From assembly GCF_965208055.1 (NCBI RefSeq), contig NZ_CBDBNY010000004.1, positions 389,706-453,705 on the forward strand: 64,000 nt of DNA. Reading direction: 5' to 3'. The notes beneath the pieces were generated by a model, which did not search any database, was not told the DNA's origin, and saw nothing but the letters and a program-made list of their open reading frames with translations. Position numbers and translations under genes: made by a program. How positions within the stretch are numbered: the first letter of the stretch is position 1; every line of letters begins with the position of its first letter. Shown piece by piece: positions 16,988 through 34,578 of this stretch. This DNA comes from Candidatus Palauibacter sp. Its GTDB lineage: Bacteria; Gemmatimonadota; Gemmatimonadetes; Palauibacterales; Palauibacteraceae.

Positions 16988-18505
16988 TTACGATATGGAT
17001 GGCGAGGGTTGAGTCGTGCCGGCAGGCATGCGCAGCCGCTTGCCCTCGCTTTCAGCCTCGTCGGGATCCAGGAAGGCATGGCACGCTTCCAGCTCCCGTT
17101 GCGTCTCTCGAAGCGAGGTCCAGCCGACGGCAAGGGTCCAGCGCTGGGCGTAGTTGAGCATGTCGATCAGAGGCTGGGGCCGCCGGTCCGTCCGGGACAG
17201 CGCACGGAGTGCGGCGAGGTAGTTGTTTCGGTACGCGGTCGGGATGATGATCCGCTCTTCGCCGGCCGTCACGAGTTCCGCATTCATCATCACGCGGGCG
17301 ACGCGTCCGTTTCCGTCCGCGAAGGGATGCACCTCGGCCACGAGGAACATCATGTAGACCGCCCGGGCAAAAGGCGACTCGAGGCTTCGATACAGGGAGA
17401 AACCTCGTTCCAGCGTCCCTGATACCAGATCGGGGAGGACGAAGTGGGTGCCGCCGGCCTTGTTCGCAGCGTCCTTGAACTCGCCGGGGCGCATTTCGGG
17501 ACGCCCGGACATGATATGCCGGTGGCGGCTCCGCAGTAGATTGGTAAGCTCCGCTGGATCTCGCGGTGTGCGCGTCATCTCCTGTGGATCGGAGACGAGA
17601 CGCCACGTTCCGACCACATCGCGAGCATCCGCGGGTCTGCGCTGTGGAATCTCGCCGTCGAAAACGATTCGCACGGCCTCGTCGACCAGGAACTCGGTGC
17701 CCTCGACGAAGTTCGAGAAGTATGCCTCGAAGAACGCCAGCGTGGCGCGGCCCTGCCCATCCCGGTGAGGTGCGGATCGTACGGTCGGAGGATGATCGCG
17801 GAGCGCCCGATGCAGCTTGTGAAACAATTCCATGCGGTCGGGATCGTAGGCGTTCCCCCGGCTGCGGGCCCGCGCAAGCGGAGAATCGAGTTCACTGCGG
17901 CGCGTGCCGAGGAGAGTGCCGATGAGAGCGTCGAGGCGGGCCGCCTCCTCCTCCAGACCGAGTTCGGCGGCCACGGCGCGGGCCTCGTCCCGCAGCTGCT
18001 TGACGGTCGGTTCGCCGGAGCGACGGATGAGGCGATCAAGTTCTTCCTCGATCTGAGCTTGGGGGAGCGTGCGCGGCACGCGGCCGCCCCGGGCCCGCGA
18101 CGGGCGCAGGTTCTGCAGGTAGGCCCGGGTCCTCGAACTGAGGTATAGTCCTTCAACGAAGGGCATATCGGACGTGGTCGGCCCGGAACCGCGTCTCGGA
18201 CGGAGTACGATGCCGGGTATCTCGATGGTCCTGCCGCGCTCGCTGATGAGGCATACCGAGCCATCGGACGCGGGGGCCGCCTCGAAGGCCGTGCGGTCGG
18301 CGACCAGAGCGCCCGGGAAATACCCGGCGACGATCGTCCACAGGTTGCGTCTCACAACATCCTCGGGCGCATCGTCCAGGTTCTTCGTGTAGAGGCGGGA
18401 CGCGAGCTTGCGCAGCGTCCCGGCCTTCACGGCCCGCGACACTTCGCCGCTGATCGCCGTATGCGACACGAAGGCTTCGGGCAGTTCGTCCAGCGTGCGG
18501 TTCAT
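16988..18505 (-). CDS. Fic-family AMP-transferase with an N-terminal AbiEi-antitoxin-like wHTH domain
   Basis: The canonical Fic motif HPFADGNGRVAR is present. An inhibitory-helix-like motif SNFVEG matches [ST]xxxE[GN]. The N-terminus (SRAVKAGTLRKLASRLYT) resembles AbiEi-type DNA-binding domains. The start was chosen at MNRTLDEL. Confidence 0.85.
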   Translation of the reverse strand: MNRTLDELPEAFVSHTAISGEVSRAVKAGTLRKLASRLYTKNLDDAPEDVVRRNLWTIVAGYFPGALVADRTAFEAAPASDGSVCLISERGRTIEIPGIVLRPRRGSGPTTSDMPFVEGLYLSSRTRAYLQNLRPSRARGGRVPRTLPQAQIEEELDRLIRRSGEPTVKQLRDEARAVAAELGLEEEAARLDALIGTLLGTRRSELDSPLARARSRGNAYDPDRMELFHKLHRALRDHPPTVRSAPHRDGQGRATLAFFEAYFSNFVEGTEFLVDEAVRIVFDGEIPQRRPADARDVVGTWRLVSDPQEMTRTPRDPAELTNLLRSRHRHIMSGRPEMRPGEFKDAANKAGGTHFVLPDLVSGTLERGFSLYRSLESPFARAVYMMFLVAEVHPFADGNGRVARVMMNAELVTAGEERIIIPTAYRNNYLAALRALSRTDRRPQPLIDMLNYAQRWTLAVGWTSLRETQRELEACHAFLDPDEAESEGKRLRMPAGTTQPSPSIS

Positions 18506-18546
18506 CGAATTTTTCCGGGGATAACGACACGAGAATCGCGCAAAAC

Positions 18547-25506: not shown

Positions 25507-26811
25507 TCAGGCGGGGATACCGTGCTTCACCGCGTGGGTCATCGCGTCCACGAAGCGGTCGAGTTCCTCCATCGTCGTGTAGGTCGAGGGGGAGATCCTG
25601 AGGCCCGTGAACTCGGCGTGGTTGATGCCAACCGTGAAGATCCGGTGCTTGTTCCACAGCCAGTTGCGGAGCGCGCTCGTGTCGATGCCCTCGACCTGGA
25701 CGTTCGCGATCCCGCACGCGAAGCCCGGCTTGAGGCTCGTGTTGAGCCGCACCCGGTCGTGCTCGAGGAGCTGGTCCGCCCAGTAGTTCCGCAGGTGGAC
25801 GAGGCGGGCTTCCTTGCGCTCTCCGCCGACCAGCTGGTGGAAGGTGAGCGCCTCGCCGATGGCGAGGAAGTTGGCCTCGGGGTGCGTGCCGATCGCCTCG
25901 AACTTCCGGATGTCGTCGTTGCTGCTCTCGGGCGCGGCCTGCAGCGGCCAGATCTCCGGGATCTTCTCCTTCCTCACATACAGGAGGCCGGTGCCGACCG
26001 GGGCGTGCAGCCACTTGTGCAGGCTCACCGCGTAGTTGTCGCAGTTGAGATCGGAGAGGGTAAAGTCATGGTGCGCCATGGAATGCGCGCCGTCGACGAG
26101 GACCGGGACGTCGTAGCCGCGCGCCATCTCCACGACCTCGCGCACGGGAAGGATCTGCCCGGTGATGTTGATCATGTGACACATGAGGATGAGCCGCGTG
26201 CGGTCGGTGATCTGCTCCTCGAACAGCCGCACGATCTCGGCCGGATCCTCGGCGGGGATCGGGATCTTGAACTGCTTGAGGACGATCCCCTCGCGCCGCT
26301 CGCGCTGCTTGAAGGTCGTGATCATGCGCCCGTAATCCTGCGTCGTCGTCACCACTTCGTCGCCGCGCTCGAGGTCGTATCCGTTCTGGAGGATCTGGAG
26401 ACCCTCCGACGCGTTGCGCGTGATCGCGACCTCCTCGGGGTCCACATCCCACTGGCGGGCGAGCCGGGCGCGGACGCCCTCCCGCTGCGGCTCCAGGATC
26501 TGCCACCCGTTGTAGACCGGGATCTGGTTCGCGAAGTCGAGATCCCGCTTCATTGCCTCGAGCACGTGGGCGGGCGTCGGGCTCACGCCCCCGTTGTTGA
26601 GGTTGACGAGGGAACGGTCGGTGGTGAACGCCTTCTGGATCTCGAGCCAGAATTCCTCGTCGCGCGCGATCTCCTCGGGGGAGCCGGGGGTGCGGGACAA
26701 GTCACGGGCCGCCGCCATGGCGGTGTTCCACTTCGTGGGCACGGCGGTCATGACTCCGGCGGCTGCGGCGGAGCCCCCGAGGCGGGCGAGGAATCGTCGT
26801 CGGGTGGGCAT
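25507..26811 (-). CDS. Class V (PLP-dependent) aminotransferase / cysteine-desulfurase-like enzyme with a Tat signal
   Basis: AGGAGG lies 4 nt before ATG 26811. The twin-arginine signal is MPTRRRFLARLGGSAAAAG. The PLP-lysine context is AVSLHKW. Confidence 0.85.
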   Translation of the reverse strand: MPTRRRFLARLGGSAAAAGVMTAVPTKWNTAMAAARDLSRTPGSPEEIARDEEFWLEIQKAFTTDRSLVNLNNGGVSPTPAHVLEAMKRDLDFANQIPVYNGWQILEPQREGVRARLARQWDVDPEEVAITRNASEGLQILQNGYDLERGDEVVTTTQDYGRMITTFKQRERREGIVLKQFKIPIPAEDPAEIVRLFEEQITDRTRLILMCHMINITGQILPVREVVEMARGYDVPVLVDGAHSMAHHDFTLSDLNCDNYAVSLHKWLHAPVGTGLLYVRKEKIPEIWPLQAAPESSNDDIRKFEAIGTHPEANFLAIGEALTFHQLVGGERKEARLVHLRNYWADQLLEHDRVRLNTSLKPGFACGIANVQVEGIDTSALRNWLWNKHRIFTVGINHAEFTGLRISPSTYTTMEELDRFVDAMTHAVKHGIPA

Positions 26812-26913
26812 GCGGCCTCCTGGCTGGTTCGATACCGGTCCGGCTACTGCCAAATAGACCGTTTTCGAAGCCGCGAGCAAGTCTGACGCCCGCTGCCTCC
26901 CGGGTGCGACAGG

Positions 26914-27477
26914 TCAGTCCGTTGCCGTGATCATGGCCAGGATCGGTTCGATCGCGGCCTCCGCCAGTTCCTCGAGTTCGCGGGCCGTGCGGTTCTGGAT
27001 GGGGTGCGGGACCCAGACGATGGCGGGCTCGAAGCCGAGCGAGCGCGACTGGCTGCGCGCGGCCTGCTCGAACTCGGTCGTGACGACGAAGCAGCCGGGG
27101 ATCCCGCGTTCATCGAGGTCTCTGAGGTCGTGCAGACCGCACGACGTGCATGACCCTCAATCGGCCAGCGCCTGCACGACGACATCGGCCTCGGTGGCGA
27201 TCCGCTGCAGCAACTCGGTCGGCGCCCGCCGCGCGTTGGTCGGCTTGTCCGTGCGGATCGTCTCGACGCCGAGCGCGTCCAGGCGCGTCTTCACGTGGTC
27301 GAGGAATTCGTCGCTGCGCAGCTTGCCGATTCCCTGAAGCGCCACGACCCGCCCCTCCAGCGACGAGGGCGGTGCACGCCGCGGGCGCATCTCGGGGGCG
27401 AGTTCGGAGGTGGGATCGTGAAGAATCGTCGTTGGGGTCGTTGGGGCAGCCGGAGTCGCCGGGGTCGGAGCCGTCAT
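26914..27477 (-). CDS. UGSC-family selenoprotein (187 codons, with an in-frame UGA at 27159-27157 read as selenocysteine)
   Basis: The track ORF stops at TGA after ...VVQALAD. The same frame continues for 80 more codons as (U)GSCTSCGLHDLRDLDERGIPGCFVVTTEF...VPHPIQNRTARELEE... up to TGA at 26916-26914. The ATG overlaps the upstream gene's stop (ATGA). A hairpin follows the UGA. Confidence 0.75.
27127..27145 (-). promoter_or_regulatory. SECIS-like mRNA hairpin downstream of the in-frame UGA
   Basis: The mRNA reads GUCGUGC-GGUCU-GCACGAC, a perfect 7-bp stem that starts 11 nt after the UGA. An outer GGUC/GACC pairing is possible. The GGUCU apical loop resembles the loop I recall for the E. coli fdhF SECIS. 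Confidence 0.6.
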
Positions 27478-28925
27478 GTCTCGATCTCTCTGGTGATGGG
27501 GTGTGAGTGCCGCCAGGCGCGGCCGCCGGGCCAGCCGGCCAGGATCGCGGAGTACAACCCGGCCGCGCCGCCGGCCCGGGCGAGGAGCAGTCCGCCGGGC
27601 GGGAATTTTGGCACGTGGCGGCGCGTTTCCGAGTCCGGCACGCCCTCCGCCAAGCCTCCCGCGCCGCGCGCGACCTCGCCCAACGGCCGCGCCGTCGCCT
27701 CCAGCAGCGCTTCGGTGATCCGCGCCCGGTCCCAGCCGGCTTCCCGGTAGATGGCGTAGTGCTCGGGCGAGAGGAGCAGCACGGCGTGCGCCCACTCGCA
27801 GATCTTCGGGTGGCAGACGGCCAGCAGGCACGCGGCGAGCGACGCGGTCAGTTCATCGGGCGTGCGGGAGCGCTGGTCCATGATCCCCTGCACGCCTTCC
27901 CCCTGGAAGAGGGTGACCGCGCTGGCCCCGCGCGGGAGGCCGCGTGAAACCGAAAGGGGCTCCCACTCCTCGTCCGATTCGTCCTCCGCGAAACAGAACG
28001 TGTACTTGCTGGGCGCCCCGAAGGTCGAGCGGTCGATCTCGCCCGGGCGCCCGCCGCCCACGTTGCGCACGATGAGGTTGAGCGCCCGTCCGATGGTCGC
28101 GTTGGCGCGGTTCCCCTGGCCGAGGACGTTGAGTCCCGAGTTCATCCCGATACGACGCGCGATGGGACCGTTCACGATGACGAGGGGCGCCGTGAAGCAT
28201 GTGCTGCACAGGATCCCGTGCAGCGTGAAGTCGGGGTCGAGCGCCGCCTCGAGCGTCGCGAGCACGACCGGCATGTACTCCGGCTTGCACCCTGCGAGCA
28301 CGGCGTTGATCGCGACCTTCTCGACCGTGCACTCGGCGTAATCCGGCGGCACCGCGCCCACGACCTCGTCCGGATCCCGAGTCGTGCCCGCGAGCATGCG
28401 CAATATCCGCTCCGGCGTCGGCGGGACGACGGGCAGCCCATCCGTCCACCCGCGCTCGAAGCACGCCTCCGCGGCGTCCGCATGCGGTTCCAGCGCCACC
28501 TGTCGCGCTTCGATGCCGGTCTCGCCGAAGCGTGCGCGCAGGCGTTCCGCCGCGCCGGGTTCGACGGACCGGGAACCGCAGCCCGGCTGGAACTCGGGCA
28601 ATTCCGCGCCCAGATCCGGAGTCGACGTCAGGTCGCGCCACTCCGCCCGGTTCCAGCCCACCGCGCGGCCCGTCTCTTTTCCATCCTCGAAGCGTACGAG
28701 CGTGGGGACCGTCTCGATGTCGAGGCGGAAGGAGTGTTCGAGTTCCGTATCGTCAACCACGCCTGAAAGCGACGCGGGAAAGTCCGGGTCGTCCTGGCTG
28801 AAGACGGCGAGACCGTCGCGGCCGCCAGCAAGCCGCTCCAGAACCGGCTCGACGAGATGACATGTGGGACAGTCCCGCTTCACGACGGCCGCGAGACTGT
28901 CGCTCGGCACCAAAGGGCGTTCCAT
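27474..28925 (-). CDS. Thioredoxin-fold (CPTC) N-terminal domain fused to a larger conserved domain of unknown function
   Basis: The N-terminus carries KRDCPTCHLVEPVLERLAG (CxxC in a thioredoxin-like context). It is a 483-aa ORF with good codon bias. Its stop overlaps the selenoprotein start. The start was chosen at MERPLVPS and no clear RBS is visible. Confidence 0.7.
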   Translation of the reverse strand: MERPLVPSDSLAAVVKRDCPTCHLVEPVLERLAGGRDGLAVFSQDDPDFPASLSGVVDDTELEHSFRLDIETVPTLVRFEDGKETGRAVGWNRAEWRDLTSTPDLGAELPEFQPGCGSRSVEPGAAERLRARFGETGIEARQVALEPHADAAEACFERGWTDGLPVVPPTPERILRMLAGTTRDPDEVVGAVPPDYAECTVEKVAINAVLAGCKPEYMPVVLATLEAALDPDFTLHGILCSTCFTAPLVIVNGPIARRIGMNSGLNVLGQGNRANATIGRALNLIVRNVGGGRPGEIDRSTFGAPSKYTFCFAEDESDEEWEPLSVSRGLPRGASAVTLFQGEGVQGIMDQRSRTPDELTASLAACLLAVCHPKICEWAHAVLLLSPEHYAIYREAGWDRARITEALLEATARPLGEVARGAGGLAEGVPDSETRRHVPKFPPGGLLLARAGGAAGLYSAILAGWPGGRAWRHSHPITREIET

Positions 28926-29158
28926 GCTGCAACGGTAACGCCCCGCGAACGTCCGAACAAAACCGGGATATTCGTTCTGAAGCCAAGATCGATGCGCCTC
29001 CCGGCCCGCCGCTCGAGATCCAAGTTGCGGCGGCGGGTGCGGCGGCACCGGGGCTGGAGGTGCCGAGCGCCGGGAGCGGTTGCGTCAGCGCGAAACACTT
29101 ACATTATTGCAATTAGTAAGGCGGTGCTGCACACTGCAATGCGAACGGAGGTGCGGTC

Positions 29159-29392
29159 ATGCTCGAATCCGCGGTAACGAAAAAAGGACAGACCACGCTC
29201 CCCAAGCCCGTCCGGGACACGCTGGGCGTGCAGGCCGGTGACCGCGTGCGCTACATCGTTCTGGACGGCGAGGTGCGCATACTGCCCGTGCGCCCTATCC
29301 ATCGGCTGTTTGGCGTGTTGAAGCACGATGGCTCCCCCGTCACCGTGGAGGAAATGAAGCGAGCCGTAGCCGACGGGGCGTCTGAGGAATGA
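29159..29392 (+). CDS. vapB: AbrB/SpoVT-family antitoxin (VapB-type)
   Basis: The product contains KKGQTTLPKPVRDTLGVQAGDRVRY, a swapped-hairpin AbrB motif. A GGAGGTG RBS precedes the start. There is an ATGA overlap with the PIN gene. Confidence 0.85.
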   Translation: MLESAVTKKGQTTLPKPVRDTLGVQAGDRVRYIVLDGEVRILPVRPIHRLFGVLKHDGSPVTVEEMKRAVADGASEE

Positions 29393-29784
29393 TTGCCCTC
29401 GACACCAACGTCCTCGTCCGCTACCTGGTGCGCGACAACGAGCAGCAGGCGGAGGCCGCTCGCGCTTTGTTGGAATCGCTCACGACCGAACGTCCAGGCT
29501 ATGCCTGCCGCGAGGTTGTCGTGGAACTCGTCTGGGTTCTGGAGCGGGCCTACGGGGTTTCCCGCGAACGCATCGCGACCATCCTGCAGGAACTCGTCGC
29601 GACGCAGAGTCTCGTTATCGAGGCCGCGGACGATGTGGCCCGAGCCGCGTTTCGCTACCAGGCAGGTGGCCCGGGATTCTCGGATCAAATGGTCCTTGCC
29701 GCGGCGGAGCGGTCCGGAGCGCGGCCGCTCTACACCTTCGATCGGAAGGCGGCGCGACTGGAGGGTGTCGAATTGTTGCGGTGA
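29389..29784 (+). CDS. vapC: PIN-domain toxin (VapC-type)
   Basis: MIALDTNVLVRY provides the first PIN acidic residue, and FSDQMVLAAAERSG...YTFDRK is also present. Confidence 0.85.
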   Translation: MIALDTNVLVRYLVRDNEQQAEAARALLESLTTERPGYACREVVVELVWVLERAYGVSRERIATILQELVATQSLVIEAADDVARAAFRYQAGGPGFSDQMVLAAAERSGARPLYTFDRKAARLEGVELLR

Positions 29785-29929: not shown

Positions 29930-29959
29930 GTGAAGGGATGTGAAGGGATGTGAAGGGGT
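29930..29959. repeat. 10-bp tandem repeat, three copies (GTGAAGGGAT)
   Basis: The sequence gtgaagggat gtgaagggat gtgaaggggt lies about 45 bp upstream of the amidohydrolase start codon. Confidence 0.8.
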
Positions 29960-30002
29960 TTTGTTTCACCGTGATGGACCCACTCGGAAGGATGTATCTC
30001 TC

Positions 30003-31715
30003 ATGAACCGAACCGCACTCGCGCGCCGGCTGGCGGGCGGGGTGGTCCCGGGGCTGCTCCTCGCATCGCTGTCCGGCCTCGCCGCTCCGACGCCCGCCGA
30101 CGCACAGTACATGCCGAGCCAGACCCCGGTGCCTCCCCCGTTCTTCGCGCTCCGGAACGCGCGCATCGTGACCGGCACGGGCGCCGTGATCGAGAACGGC
30201 ACCGTCGTCATCGCGAACGGCCTCATCGAGGCGGTCGGAGCCGACGTCGAGGTCCCCGGCGATGCCTGGGCGATCGACGTCTCGGGCCTGACCGTCTACC
30301 CCGGCCTGTTCGACGGGCTGTCCCAGGTTGGGATGGCCTCGCAGGCAGGCAGTCCGGGAGGCGGCGGGGGAGGCAACCCCTTCGCCGTCTTTGCCGAGCA
30401 GGCGAACCAGCCCCGCACCGTGGGGCCCGAGGATCGTCCGGCGACGAACTCCTGGGTCAACGCGGCGGACATGCTGGATCCGGACTCCGACGCGATCGAG
30501 ACGTGGCGCAGCGGCGGGTTCACGAACGCGCTCGTGGCGCCCGATGACGGGATCGTGACGGGACAGGGCGTCGTGGTGAACCTCGCCGGCGACGAGCAGG
30601 AGATGGTCGTGAAGGCGCCCGCCGCGCTGCGGGTGACGATGAGCGGGGCCGGCGGATTCCGGAGCTTCCCGGGTTCACTCATGGGCGTCATCGCCTACGT
30701 CCGGCAACTCTACCTGGACGCGGACCACAGCCGGCAGTACGAGGCGCGCTACATGGCCAACCCGAGCGGCCAGCCCAGGCCCACCTACGACCGGGCGCTC
30801 GGTCCGATCCAGGACGCGATCGCCGGAGGGTGGCCGACGGTCATGCCGGCGAACGAGGTGCGGCAGATCCGGCGGGCGATCAAGCTGGGGCGCGACACCG
30901 GTGCACGACCGCTCCTCCAGGGCGCGCACGAGGCGTACGAACTGGCCGACGAGATCGCGGCCGCGGGCGTCCAGGTGCTCGTCAACGTGGACTGGCCCGA
31001 GCGGAACCGCGATGCGGATCCGGAGGCCGACGAGTCGCTCGCGTCGCTGAAGCGCCGCGCCTATGCGCCTACGACCCCGGCCCGGCTCGAGGAGGCGGGC
31101 GTCGAATGGGCCTTCTACAGCGGCTCGGCCGGCAACCCCCGCGCCATGATGGACAACGTGCGGGCCGCGATCGAGAACGGGCTCTCGGAGGAAGCGGCTC
31201 TGGAAGCGCTCACCGCCGCCCCGGCGCGGATCTACGGCGTGGACGCGATGCTGGGCTCCGTCGAGGCGGGGAAGATTGCGAACCTCGTCGTCACGGACGG
31301 CCCGCTGTTCGACGAGGACACGGACATTCGGATGGTGTTCGTCGACGGCCACAAGTTCGAGGAGGAGGCGCCCGAGCCCAGGCCGACCGAACCGCCGGCC
31401 GTCGACATGAACGGCACCTGGCTCCTCTCCCTGAACAACGATTCGCAGGAGGCGACGGCCGAACTCGAGGTGTCGGAGGACGGCACGATCTCCGGCACGA
31501 TCCAGGGCGAGCGGGGCGAGCAGCAGATCACGGACGGCTGGGTGAGCGGCAACGAGTTCAGCATCACCGCCTCCGCCACGATGGGACCGGGCATGGAAGT
31601 GGAGATCGTCTATACCGGCACGGTCGAGGACGATTCGATCGAAGGGAACGCTTCCTTCGGCGGCATGCGCAACATGGACTTCACGGGCGCGAGGCCCGGG
31701 GGAGGCGTCCGATGA
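30003..31715 (+). CDS. Amidohydrolase-family protein 1 (secreted)
   Basis: The signal peptide is MNRTALARRLAGGVVPGLLLASLSGLAAPTPADA. The N-terminal composite-domain motif IVIANGLIEAVG is typical of this family. Confidence 0.8.
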   Translation: MNRTALARRLAGGVVPGLLLASLSGLAAPTPADAQYMPSQTPVPPPFFALRNARIVTGTGAVIENGTVVIANGLIEAVGADVEVPGDAWAIDVSGLTVYPGLFDGLSQVGMASQAGSPGGGGGGNPFAVFAEQANQPRTVGPEDRPATNSWVNAADMLDPDSDAIETWRSGGFTNALVAPDDGIVTGQGVVVNLAGDEQEMVVKAPAALRVTMSGAGGFRSFPGSLMGVIAYVRQLYLDADHSRQYEARYMANPSGQPRPTYDRALGPIQDAIAGGWPTVMPANEVRQIRRAIKLGRDTGARPLLQGAHEAYELADEIAAAGVQVLVNVDWPERNRDADPEADESLASLKRRAYAPTTPARLEEAGVEWAFYSGSAGNPRAMMDNVRAAIENGLSEEAALEALTAAPARIYGVDAMLGSVEAGKIANLVVTDGPLFDEDTDIRMVFVDGHKFEEEAPEPRPTEPPAVDMNGTWLLSLNNDSQEATAELEVSEDGTISGTIQGERGEQQITDGWVSGNEFSITASATMGPGMEVEIVYTGTVEDDSIEGNASFGGMRNMDFTGARPGGGVR

Positions 31716-33136
31716 GACAGGCCATGAGACAGGCCATGAGACACGGTACGGGGCGGGTGGGGGCTGGCTGGCTGGCGCTCGCGGTCGCGCTCGGGATTCC
31801 GGGCGGGGTCGCCGCGCAGGACCAGCCGATCCTGATCCGCGGTGCGACGATCCTCACCGCGGCGGAAGCCGGCCGGATCGAAGACGGCGCCGTCCTGTTC
31901 CAGAACGGGCGCATCGTCGCGGTCGGCCCGACTTCCGAAGTGGAAGCGCCGTCCGATGCGATGGTCATCGACGGCACGGGCAAGTTCGTGACCCCCGGAA
32001 TCGTCGACGCCCACTCCCACATCGCGGCGGACGCGATCAACGAGGGGGCGGTCTCCGTCTCCTCCATGGTCTCGATCCACGACGTGATCGACCCGACGGA
32101 CATCGCGATCTACCGCGAGGCTGCGGGCGGCACGACGACATCGCACGTCATGCACGGAAGCGCGAACCCGATCGGCGGGAACAACGCCGTCATCAAGCAC
32201 CGCTGGGGCGCCGATGCGCAGGGCCTCCTCTTCCAGGGCGCCCCGCCGACGATCAAGTTCGCGCTCGGCGAGAACCCGAAGCGGGCCGGCAGTCCCACCC
32301 TCCCCGGCCAGGAAGCGCGCTATCCCGCCTCCCGCATGGGCGTGATGGACGTGATCCGGCAGGCCTTCATCGAGGCCGCCGAGTACAAGGCCGAGTGGGA
32401 CGCCTACCGCGCCCGGATGGCCGATGGCGACCGCGACGCGATCCCGCCGCGGCGCAACCTGACCATGGATCCGCTGGTCGAGGTCCTCGAAGGCGCGCGC
32501 TATGTGCACGCGCATAGCTACCGCGCGGACGAGATCCTGCAGCTCATGAGGGTGGCCGAGGAGTTCGGCTTCCGCATCCACACCTTCCAGCACGTGCTCG
32601 AGGGCTACCGCGTCGCCGACGAGATGGCGGAGCACGGGGCCCACGCCTCCACGTTCTCCGACTGGTGGGCCTACAAAATGGAGGCCTACGAGGCGATCCC
32701 GTACAACGCCGCGATCATGACCCAACGCGGAGTCAACGTCTCCATCAATTCCGACAGCGGAGAAGAAGGACGGCACCTCAATCAGGAAGCCGCCAAGACG
32801 ATGAAGTGGGGCGGTCTGAGCGAGGCGGAGGCCCTCGCCACCGTCACGATCAATCCGGCGATCCAGCTCATGATCGACGACCGGGTGGGCTCGCTGGAGG
32901 CAGGGAAGGACGCGGACATCGTCCTGTGGGAGAACTATCCGCTTTCCTCCTACGCCATGGTCCGGACCACGTATATCGACGGCGAGGCGGTGTTCGATGT
33001 CGACGCGGACATGGCGATGCGGGCCGGGATCGAGGCCGAGAAGGCGGAGTTGAGAGAGCTGCTCGGAGAGGCCGACGACCCGGAGGACTCCGGCGACGAG
33101 CGGGATCCGGGCACGCGGTCGGGAGGCGGACGATGA
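31712..33136 (+). CDS. Amidohydrolase-family protein 2 (metal-dependent; HxH motif)
   Basis: There is an ATGA overlap with the previous gene. A signal peptide is present. GIVDAHSHIA is the metal-binding HxH motif. Confidence 0.85.
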   Translation: MRQAMRQAMRHGTGRVGAGWLALAVALGIPGGVAAQDQPILIRGATILTAAEAGRIEDGAVLFQNGRIVAVGPTSEVEAPSDAMVIDGTGKFVTPGIVDAHSHIAADAINEGAVSVSSMVSIHDVIDPTDIAIYREAAGGTTTSHVMHGSANPIGGNNAVIKHRWGADAQGLLFQGAPPTIKFALGENPKRAGSPTLPGQEARYPASRMGVMDVIRQAFIEAAEYKAEWDAYRARMADGDRDAIPPRRNLTMDPLVEVLEGARYVHAHSYRADEILQLMRVAEEFGFRIHTFQHVLEGYRVADEMAEHGAHASTFSDWWAYKMEAYEAIPYNAAIMTQRGVNVSINSDSGEEGRHLNQEAAKTMKWGGLSEAEALATVTINPAIQLMIDDRVGSLEAGKDADIVLWENYPLSSYAMVRTTYIDGEAVFDVDADMAMRAGIEAEKAELRELLGEADDPEDSGDERDPGTRSGGGR

Positions 33137-34539
33137 CGCGCAGATCCGGAAACACTCCCGTGAACATCCTTGCCAACACTACGAACCACAGGATCGACAC
33201 CATGGTGAAGTCGATAGTCGCGACGGCGGCAGTCCTCGGGACCCTCGGAGTCGCCGTGCCGGTTCAGGCGGCGGCGCAGGAGGGCGGGACGTTCGCCGTG
33301 CAGGGGGCCACGATCCACACGGTGTCCGACGGCGTCATCGACGAGGGGACGATCGTGATCAGGGACGGCCGCATCATCGCCGTCGGAAGCGATGTCGAGG
33401 TCCCGGCGGACGCCGAGATCATCGACGGAGAGGGGAAGCACGTCTTTCCCGGCATGATCGATTCCTTCAGCTCGCTCGGGCTCACGGAGATCGGGGCCGT
33501 CGCGGTGACGAACGACGCGAGCGAATTGGGCCGCTGGAACCCGCATCTCAACGCGCATACGGCGATCCACCCCGCCAGCGAGCACATCCCGGTCGCGCGC
33601 GCGAACGGGATCACGCACACGATGACGGCGCCCGGCGGCGGTGGAGGCTCCGGCATCCAGGGCCAGGCCACGCTCATCCATCTCGATGGCTGGACGGTGG
33701 AGGAGATGGAGATCGAGAAGACCGCGGCCATGGTCCTCGGCTGGCCCACGCTCTCGACGAGTTTCCGCGCCTTCGCCGGTTTCGGCCGTCCGGCAGGCGG
33801 CCGTTCCTTCCGCCAGGCGCAGGAGCGCTTCGACGAGCAGGTGGCGGAGATGGACGAGTGGTTTGTCGCCGCGGATCACTACCGGCAGGCGGTGGCCTCC
33901 GGGTCGAGCCGCGTGCCCCGCAACATCCAGCTCGAGCACCTGTCGCGCGTCCTCGACCGGGGAATGAAGGTCATCGTGCGTGCGAACGGCTGGCGCGAGA
34001 TCGAGTCGGCCATCGAGTTCGCGGAGAAGTGGAACCTGGACCTCGTCATCGCGGGCGGGACCGGCGCGCGCGAGATCGCGGGCACGCTGGCCGAAAAGAA
34101 CGTCCCCGTCATCCTGGGCCCGGTGCAGCGGCTGCCGCAGGGCGAGGACACCGCGTACGACGACCCGAACACGCTGCCCGGCGTGCTGCACGACGCGGGG
34201 GTCGAAATCGCGTTCGCCACCTTCAACTCCGCCGACTCGCGGACGCTGCCCTACGAGGCGGCGAACTCCGTGTCGTGGGGGCTCACGAAGGATGCGGCAC
34301 TGGAGGCCGTGACGCTGGCGCCCGCGCGGGTGCTGGGCGTCGACGACCGGCTCGGGTCGCTGGAGGTCGGAAAGGTGGGGAACCTGATCGTGACCGACGG
34401 GGATCCGCTCGAGATCACGACGGAGATCGAGTGGGTGTTCATCAAGGGCGTGCCGTCCGACCTGGACAACAAGCACCGCAGCCTGTGGGAGAAGTATGAC
34501 AACCGTCCCGCACGGCGAGTGACCACGACGACGACCTGA
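33133..34539 (+). CDS. Amidohydrolase-family protein 3
   Basis: There is an ATGA overlap with the previous gene. An alternative start at ATG 33202 (MVKSIVATAAVLG...) would give a cleaner signal peptide. IVIRDGRIIAVG and PGMIDSFSSLG motifs are present. Confidence 0.8.
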   Translation: MTRRSGNTPVNILANTTNHRIDTMVKSIVATAAVLGTLGVAVPVQAAAQEGGTFAVQGATIHTVSDGVIDEGTIVIRDGRIIAVGSDVEVPADAEIIDGEGKHVFPGMIDSFSSLGLTEIGAVAVTNDASELGRWNPHLNAHTAIHPASEHIPVARANGITHTMTAPGGGGGSGIQGQATLIHLDGWTVEEMEIEKTAAMVLGWPTLSTSFRAFAGFGRPAGGRSFRQAQERFDEQVAEMDEWFVAADHYRQAVASGSSRVPRNIQLEHLSRVLDRGMKVIVRANGWREIESAIEFAEKWNLDLVIAGGTGAREIAGTLAEKNVPVILGPVQRLPQGEDTAYDDPNTLPGVLHDAGVEIAFATFNSADSRTLPYEAANSVSWGLTKDAALEAVTLAPARVLGVDDRLGSLEVGKVGNLIVTDGDPLEITTEIEWVFIKGVPSDLDNKHRSLWEKYDNRPARRVTTTTT

Positions 34540-34578
34540 CGGCCGGAGCCGGACCGGGAGTTTGTCGACCTGCGCCGG

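Follow-up and report, generated by a model that had tools for sequence, protein, structure and literature searches.

A UGSC-family gene with a predicted selenocysteine codon and a SECIS-like hairpin, next to a two-domain partner gene, in a sponge-associated Gemmatimonadota genome

The "UGSC-containing protein" is an established, computationally predicted selenoprotein family of uncharacterised function with the motif UxxC (U, selenocysteine, Sec), and in aquatic metagenomes its Sec forms are commoner than its cysteine (Cys) forms, the Global Ocean Sampling data holding 255 Sec and 21 Cys sequences (PMC2398784, PMC13188914). The selenoproteins GrdB and PrdB also carry UxxC (PMC2398784 Table 2). 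For the RNA element that directs Sec insertion, the selenocysteine insertion sequence (SECIS), the determinants described in Escherichia coli are an upper stem-loop 11 nucleotides (nt) past the UGA, a conserved and bulged U17, and the bases G23 and U24 (PMC8659212). Here we analyze a gene on the minus strand of a 64,000-nt stretch of DNA, called the window below, whose host is a Candidatus Palauibacter-like Gemmatimonadota from sponges. A reading of the sequence alone, referred to as the original prediction, had proposed that open reading frame (ORF) calling had missed a UGSC selenoprotein gene at this position. We find that the gene is another member of the known, functionally uncharacterised UGSC family, that its in-frame UGA is very probably recoded as Sec, and that it is accompanied by a larger gene directly upstream, which we call the partner. 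The gene and its special codon are placed as follows.

26914..27477, minus strand: gene of the UGSC selenoprotein family, 187 codons (106 + Sec + 80) and the stop TGA 26916-26914
27157..27159, minus strand: in-frame UGA, predicted Sec residue 107 in the motif D-U-G-S-C, assigned by comparison of homologous codons

The reading frame runs on the minus strand from the ATG at 27477-27475 to a TGA at 27159-27157 (codon 107) and continues through 80 sense codons to the TGA at 26916-26914. The encoded sequence is ...VVQALAD-U-GSCTSCGLHDL...VPHPIQNRTARELEE..., with the Sec-spanning stretch ...ALAD-U-GSCTSCGLHDLR. Translation thus bears out the open frame of 80 codons past the TGA and the 187-codon product of the original prediction, and the gene had indeed been missed, the entry 27157..27831 in the ORF list covering just the segment up to the internal TGA.

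Membership of the UGSC family had been proposed from the motif and from a size of about 180 amino acids (aa), and both agree with the family models. The product matches the Pfam family PF24696 "UGSC" with 116.3 bits when U is scored as C, against a gathering score of 25 bits, over model positions 3-171 of 172. The match to NCBIfam NF041046 "UGSC family (seleno)protein" scores 119.7 bits with E = 1e-34 (U as C) and spans positions 2-146 of 147, other UGSC members reaching E = 4.6e-47. Both models require the C-terminal half of the product. Residues D106-U107-G108-S109-C110 align with an invariant D-C-G-S-C in 15 homologues, and full-length homologues measure 172-198 aa, compared with 187 aa here. 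Two distant Cys forms of the family (P0051 and P0052, 27-29% identity) are longer by about 90 aa at the C-terminus, and this added segment contains a CxxC and gives a weak NifU-like match (E = 8e-4); it may be the "UGSC/Unknown_1 fusion" named in the 2008 paper on the family.

The first alternative to be weighed is that the UGA is a genuine stop, giving a 106-residue protein followed by 240 nt that are untranslated or decayed, as in a pseudogene or an assembly error. Public gene calls seem to speak for it, most of them being 103-109 aa long or split in two pieces, and Sec machinery is not seen in the window. One Palauibacter assembly (GCA_965206735.1), on the other hand, is annotated with a 182-aa product that reads through the UGA. 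In a genome scan with one genome per species we obtained 47 UGSC loci from Gemmatimonadota, Acidobacteriota, Acidimicrobiales, and Alpha-, Beta- and Gammaproteobacteria, the Gemmatimonadota loci coming mostly from Candidatus Palauibacter metagenome-assembled genomes (MAGs) from sponges, with a best identity of 95%. The tblastn matches extend to residue ~185 in the 47 genomes, and the homologous codon is TGA in 47/47 loci, 44 of which encode U-G-S-C and 3 U-G-A-C; the Cys-form loci have TGC or TGT at the Sec codon in 86 cases. The frame stays open for 78-88 codons 3' of the UGA in 48/48 genes. Within the Palauibacter clade the substitutions after the UGA fall 56/73/239 on codon positions 1/2/3, the third position taking 65% (239/368), showing that this stretch evolves as coding sequence, and conservation of the protein reaches a C-terminal HP..NRT motif. 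Proteins in the databases fall into two classes, one of 103-132 aa that holds the N-terminal half only and represents truncated Sec forms, and one of 172-198 aa that has Cys at the aligned column and is uninterrupted. One of the two outcomes that the original prediction had named as speaking against it, homologues that uniformly stop here and downstream codons that are unconserved, is not what the 47 genomes present. A true stop is thus extremely improbable.

It is also relevant that the UGSC gene, the partner gene and a downstream aminotransferase gene all end at TGA. UGA thus serves as a regular stop codon in this genome, and reading through an internal one requires a local signal. Together with the conservation data above, this eliminates a pseudogene, a sequencing error, two separate genes and a reassigned code as explanations.

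A candidate for the local signal lies immediately downstream. Its positions are numbered with the U of the UGA as position 1.

27127..27145, minus strand: SECIS-like upper stem-loop, stem 15-21/27-33 with loop GGUCU at 22-26 (27134-27138), from folds and comparison
27116..27156, minus strand: possible lower stem, lineage-specific, positions 4-8 with 40-44, from the minimum-energy fold of the window

Folding reproduces the predicted hairpin with its GGUCU loop, in which a 7-bp stem GUCGUGC (15-21) / GCACGAC (27-33) stands 11 nt past the UGA. The outer pairing that had been proposed with it, GGUC (5-8) with GACC (40-43), is possible and belongs to the minimum-energy fold in this clade, but it is not conserved family-wide, the outer pairs 6-42, 7-41 and 8-40 forming in 21, 28 and 32 of 43 distinct sequences. 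Numbering fdhF of E. coli K-12 in the same way, from the UGA at its codon 140, we find GGUCUGCAC at positions 22-30 of both fdhF and the window gene, in the same register. The resemblance claimed to the apical part of the fdhF element consequently stands for this segment and does not extend to the bulged U17. The window has the 11-nt spacing and the G23/U24 of an E. coli-type SECIS, whereas position 17 is a C paired with G31 in an unbroken stem, and the bulged U17 required by E. coli SelB is absent. A scan of the window for in-frame TGA codons flanked on both sides by coding-like GC content at third codon positions gave 18 candidates, and an fdhF-type loop was found solely at the UGSC site, in a search that was not rigorous.

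The stability of the single sequence is unexceptional for 67% GC (folding z = -1.6 for a 44-mer and -0.8 for a 71-mer), so the case for the hairpin rests on comparison with other genomes. We compared 31 distinct Sec forms with 66 distinct Cys forms that encode the identical S-C..H-D peptide, the Cys forms having been collected in a metagenome scan and by looking up contigs. The comparison addresses a second alternative, namely that the hairpin is a by-product of the S-C-G-L-H-D peptide with no function as RNA, recoding, if any, being achieved by other means. Four of the seven stem pairs (16-32, 17-31, 19-29 and 20-28) are in fact forced by the Ser, Cys, His and Asp codons and are fixed in Sec and Cys forms alike (66/66), and some Cys forms (such as L049) fold the same stem. 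The informative pairs are the three that join wobble sites to wobble sites, 15-33, 18-30 and 21-27, and the counts for these, for the full stem and for the loop are as follows.

Pair 15-33 formed: 26/31 Sec forms, 32/66 Cys forms
Pair 18-30 formed: 31/31 Sec forms (G-C 11, A-U 6, G-U 14), 34/66 Cys forms
Pair 21-27 formed: 31/31 Sec forms (C-G 30, U-A 1), 36/66 Cys forms
All seven pairs formed: 26/31 Sec forms, 9/66 Cys forms
G23-U24 in the loop: 31/31 Sec forms, 2/66 Cys forms

It is clear from these counts that 84-100% of the Sec forms keep the wobble-only pairs, against a nearly random 48-55% of the Cys forms. Fisher tests give p values from 9e-4 to 2e-23, with 2e-11 for the full stem and 2e-23 for G23-U24, all of them inflated by relatedness, as the sequences were treated as independent. 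Pairs 18-30 and 21-27 covary in the Sec forms, with A-U and U-A double changes, and A-C is never seen at pair 18-30. Sites 15, 18 and 27, all four-fold degenerate, hold purines only in the Sec forms and all four bases in the Cys forms, and the loop codons specify G-L or S-L in Sec forms (loop NGUNU) versus S-T in Cys forms. The contrast in wobble pairs and loop shows that selection acts on the RNA structure specifically in genes with UGA at that codon. That the hairpin is a mere by-product of the peptide is accordingly very improbable, and we predict from the comparison that it works like the fdhF element, though it is no copy of the E. coli consensus.

A third alternative accepts the read-through and dispenses with Sec: UGA might be reassigned genome-wide to Trp or Gly, or be read by a near-cognate tRNA as Cys or Trp with no SECIS and no SelB. 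This would fit with the tolerance of Cys at the position in many homologues. It is countered by the TGA stops of the UGSC, partner and aminotransferase genes, which leave no room for global reassignment, by the selection on synonymous hairpin sites and on G23-U24 solely where the codon is UGA, and by a loop equal to the SelB-binding loop of fdhF. The neighbourhood of one homologous module argues in the same direction: in Xanthobacter sp. 126 (GCA_000526175.1, L139 1164-10176) the partner-UGSC pair, with the same UGA and hairpin and with the UGSC gene called as 97 + 73 aa, adjoins genes with SelA-, SelB- and SelD-type (AIRS) domains. An Ectothiorhodospiraceae MAG (L028) has a selD homologue ~2 kb from its UGSC gene. 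We regard decoding as anything other than Sec as highly improbable. The Xanthobacter locus also has an adjacent CMD-domain gene, and genes for TusA, DsrE and thioredoxin are located a few kb from it.

Several results pull the other way from a UGSC selenoprotein decoded with the help of the hairpin, and they have to be set against the above. The NF041046 score is 5 bits below the curated equivalog cut-off of 125. On the RNA side, the U17 bulge is missing, the single-sequence fold is unremarkable, more than half of the stem is dictated by codons, and the full stem in 9/66 Cys forms makes the hairpin by itself undiagnostic. Rfam has no family at gathering threshold across the window, and a permissive Rfam scan of 26850-27550 gave a single chance-level, unrelated match; bacterial SECIS elements of this type are outside the coverage of Rfam. 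Genes for selA, selB, selD and tRNA-Sec were found neither within the 64-kb window, which has no tRNA gene of any kind, nor in the 12-kb flanks of the Palauibacter loci. ARAGORN, run on the window, on all 47 genome loci and on the Xanthobacter locus, detected no tRNA-Sec, and tblastn with the SelA, SelB and SelD proteins of E. coli and Xanthobacter against the window and all loci returned the selD homologue of L028 only. Transcriptional support is weak and stems from related strains, whose operons are present in metatranscriptome contigs of a sponge RNA library, with nothing beyond that; scans for promoters and terminators around the partner-UGSC operon found none. Weighing both sides, we put the probability that this is a UGSC gene whose UGA is recoded as Sec at roughly 0.9, on comparative sequence evidence.

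The partner, which precedes the UGSC gene on the same strand, has the following features.

27474..28925, minus strand: partner gene, 483 aa and stop, with a modelled thioredoxin-fold N-terminus followed by an uncharacterised domain of ~350-370 aa
28860-28871, minus strand: CPTC of the partner, an invariant CxxC
28578-28580, minus strand: Cys116 (TGC) of the partner motif PGCGS, an invariant Cys
27474..27477, minus strand: ATGA overlap of the partner stop and the UGSC start, sequence GAGACATGACGGC

The ORF at 29048..27474 has 524 codons; conservation begins at about residue 47, and public calls start at M42, which gives the 483 aa. The partner stands directly upstream of the UGSC gene in 47/47 genome loci and in 75/77 Cys-form metagenome loci with enough flanking sequence, and the 4-nt overlap is usually found in the Cys-form loci too. 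The ATGA overlap suggests, from the sequence, that the two genes are translationally coupled. The original prediction had the UGSC start overlapping the stop of a CPTC thioredoxin-fold gene, from which it drew a redox context. The ATGA and the CPTC are both present, while the upstream gene turns out to encode a two-domain protein of 483 aa and no simple thioredoxin. The redox context is supported by the AlphaFold2 model and by Foldseek, in which the first ~100 residues adopt a thioredoxin fold (TM-score ~0.6, root-mean-square deviation ~2.7 Å to many thioredoxins), and among PDB sequences the partner retrieves thioredoxins only. The partner family comprises at least 8,000 protein clusters, annotated merely as "thioredoxin family protein". 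For the large domain, class I fumarate hydratase and Toblerone-fold hydrolase were considered and dropped, the Foldseek TM-scores of ~0.2 being uninformative. In two long-read MAGs the partner gene is frameshifted (L022:3984-5423, with high-scoring segment pairs in three frames, and L140:3500-4100, with one frame change); these are probably assembly indels and not biology. A 332-aa partner call (P0137) was examined as a possible Sec codon and rejected as a frameshift in a long-read assembly.

A different situation was met in a betaproteobacterial MAG (L030), where the invariant Cys116 codon of the partner is TGA. The change from PG-C-GS to PG-U-GS was found in 7 sequences from 6 distinct loci of a betaproteobacterial/Burkholderiales-like clade, with the TGA at L030:4892, L141:6331, L142:6373, L143:6346, L144:2600, L145:4340 and L146:1226. 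A search with the N-terminal fragment from L030 gave 750 matches, the best 120 of which are all 110-139 aa long, and 15/15 that were inspected end in ...F/L-[RQ]-P-G. In each of five longer contigs the partner is split into calls of ~110-124 aa and ~360 aa, and the UGSC gene that follows is likewise split at its UGA; a further, short contig (L146) holds the split partner only. Reading through the partner TGA in three contigs gives 479-494 aa. A second hairpin, CUCG-A-GCC, loop CGGGGU, GGC-CGAG (CUCGAGCCCGGGGUGGCCGAG), is located 12 nt past the partner UGA. It is invariant across seven consecutive wobble sites in 7/7 sequences, where flanking synonymous sites vary, and it can form in 0/71 distinct Cys-form partner genes, including the window copy with its TGC. 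Five operons carry both UGAs and would thus encode two selenoproteins.

A switch between Sec and Cys is a standard sign that a redox residue is catalytic, and because of this switch Cys116 is likely to be an active-site residue of the partner. We found no prior description of a Sec-form partner within the accessible literature, and the list of selenoprotein operons in a 2026 review is without the partner-UGSC pair.

For the structure of the UGSC protein itself, a Cys form with 52% identity (P0008) was modelled with AlphaFold2 in place of the window protein. The model has a predicted local distance difference test (pLDDT) score of 89 and shows a five-stranded parallel alpha/beta fold with the C/U residue opening the helix that follows strand 3. 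A UxxC at the N-terminus of a helix right after a beta-strand is typical of a redox-active selenol/thiol pair. The nearest PDB entries by Foldseek are flavodoxin, REC (CheY), TIR and DJ-1 domains (TM-score 0.4-0.5) with no thioredoxins among them, and the UGSC profile, searched against the PDB sequences, gave no match. The fold is thus predicted from the model to be flavodoxin-like alpha/beta, and the thioredoxin fold suggested for the UGSC protein in 2008 is unsupported by the P0008 model and its neighbours.

The same 2008 suggestion leads to a further alternative, in which the UGSC protein is a free-standing thioredoxin-fold oxidoreductase for antioxidant defence and forms no dedicated subunit with its neighbour. 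The UxxC motif would suit such an enzyme. The modelled fold, however, does not, and the gene is locked to the partner in ~98-100% of loci, usually with the 4-nt overlap. Solute transporters and GntR regulators are moreover often nearby, which fits a catabolic role. We consider a free-standing oxidoreductase improbable.

Instead we propose, tentatively and largely by analogy, that the UGSC protein and the partner act together. The ribosome would not terminate at the UGA at 27159-27157; the hairpin would recruit SelB with Sec-tRNA(Sec), Sec would be inserted and the 80 further codons translated. The UGSC protein and the partner may then form one redox enzyme, in which Sec107 and Cys110 would carry out a reductive step, with either a small molecule or the partner as substrate, and be left as a selenenylsulfide. 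This could be re-reduced through Cys116 and the CPTC thioredoxin domain of the partner, loosely as in the UxxC subunits GrdB and PrdB. That the two proteins constitute a single redox enzyme is possible, with the odds in our estimate clearly short of even, and we are no more confident of its wider form, in which they would be subunits of one widespread selenium-dependent small-molecule reductase with catalytic U/C107 and U/C116 and with a GrdB/PrdB-like logic, perhaps even ancestry.

Twelve of 16 UGSC members weakly match the models of glycine/sarcosine/betaine reductase selenoprotein B near the Sec (best E = 1.4e-4), residues 93-170 of the window protein aligning to positions 333-405 of 431 in the GrdB model. 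Two findings detract from the two-protein enzyme. The scores against these models are far below membership (TIGR01917, 16.6 bits with a cut-off of 602; TIGR01918, 10.5 with a cut-off of 65), and Pfam GRDB (PF07355) does not match the UGSC protein. The ~350-370-aa remainder of the partner, furthermore, has no match in Pfam or NCBIfam and no convincing match among solved structures.

The gene neighbourhood is in keeping with a metabolic function. Frequent neighbours of the partner-UGSC module are TRAP, TctC and MFS transporters and GntR-FCD regulators, and in the clade with two Sec codons aldo/keto reductase, aminotransferase and GFO/IDH/MocA genes. Together these transporters, regulators and enzymes suggest a small organic substrate. 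Downstream of the UGSC gene in the window is the aminotransferase gene mentioned above.

25507-26811, minus strand: class-V aminotransferase, cysteine desulfurase/selenocysteine lyase/PvdN-like

Its best NCBIfam match is PvdN (E = 8e-42, far under the cut-off), and its N-terminus resembles a twin-arginine signal (MPTRRRFLARLGGSAAAAG). As it is common to 17/47 UGSC loci only (the Palauibacter clade and L016/L017), a link to selenium metabolism is unproven.

Other genes of the window lie further off.

18724-24729, plus strand: ORF of 2001 codons matching the Druantia defence helicase DruE (PADLOC DruE3 E = 1e-100, DruE1 E = 8e-99)
~16988-18550, minus strand: Fic-domain gene adjoining the DruE-like ORF
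29159-29784, plus strand: toxin-antitoxin-like pair just upstream of the partner, on the opposite strand
~29940-34560, plus strand: three consecutive amidohydrolase genes (PF01979)

The DruE-like product of a near-identical contig also has a Peptidase_S24 domain. By the annotation of a near-identical contig (L137), the toxin-antitoxin-like pair comprises a 77-aa antitoxin of the MazE/PrlF type and, overlapping it, a 131-aa protein with a PIN domain, and PADLOC has no match at 29159-29784; the amidohydrolases are 570, 474 and 474 aa long in the same contig, and a gene for a small RF-1-domain protein lies beyond them.

In aquatic metagenomes few predicted selenoproteins are as abundant as those of the UGSC family. 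The practical consequence of our analysis is an annotation correction, since the calls of 103-109 aa in sponge-associated Gemmatimonadota omit the entire C-terminal half together with its conserved H-P motif. It further implies that this lineage of sponge symbionts decodes UGA as Sec. If the two-protein model is true, the PG-U-GS partner is a selenoprotein family missing from the accessible catalogues, and its C-terminal domain of ~350-370 aa is a new catalytic domain. The lock between the two genes, the Sec/Cys switch at Cys116 of the partner and the flavodoxin-like fold offer experimental handles, with two candidate active-site residues and a pair of genes that can be expressed as one unit, and Xanthobacter sp. 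126, a cultured isolate, is a possible experimental model for the UGSC system.

Compared with the UGSC family as described by Zhang & Gladyshev in 2008, the window gene shows no essential difference, and its host lineage is simply one more carrier. With the SECIS of E. coli fdhF the predicted element shares the register, the 11-nt spacing, and G23 and U24 in the apical loop; it differs in that its stem is a perfect 7-bp helix and its lower stem is weak and unconserved, and other UGSC members have the loops AGUUU, AGUCU and AGUGU in place of the GGUCU of fdhF and the window. The partner is like a thioredoxin in its modelled N-terminal fold and its invariant CPTC. It departs from one in being fused to a large domain with several invariant Cys, in scoring below all curated thioredoxin cut-offs (18 versus 97 bits), and in having its Sec site at Cys116, outside the CxxC. 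UGSC hosts are mostly aerobic or facultative Proteobacteria and Gemmatimonadota, and not Stickland fermenters. With GrdB, GrdF, GrdH and PrdB the UGSC protein has in common the UxxC Sec motif and a second, larger partner protein, whereas it measures ~180 aa against ~430 aa for GrdB/PrdB, and its partner has no similarity to the pyruvoyl proenzymes GrdE and PrdA or to any curated family. We therefore regard the relation to GrdB and PrdB as one of analogy, possibly of remote homology, and not of membership.

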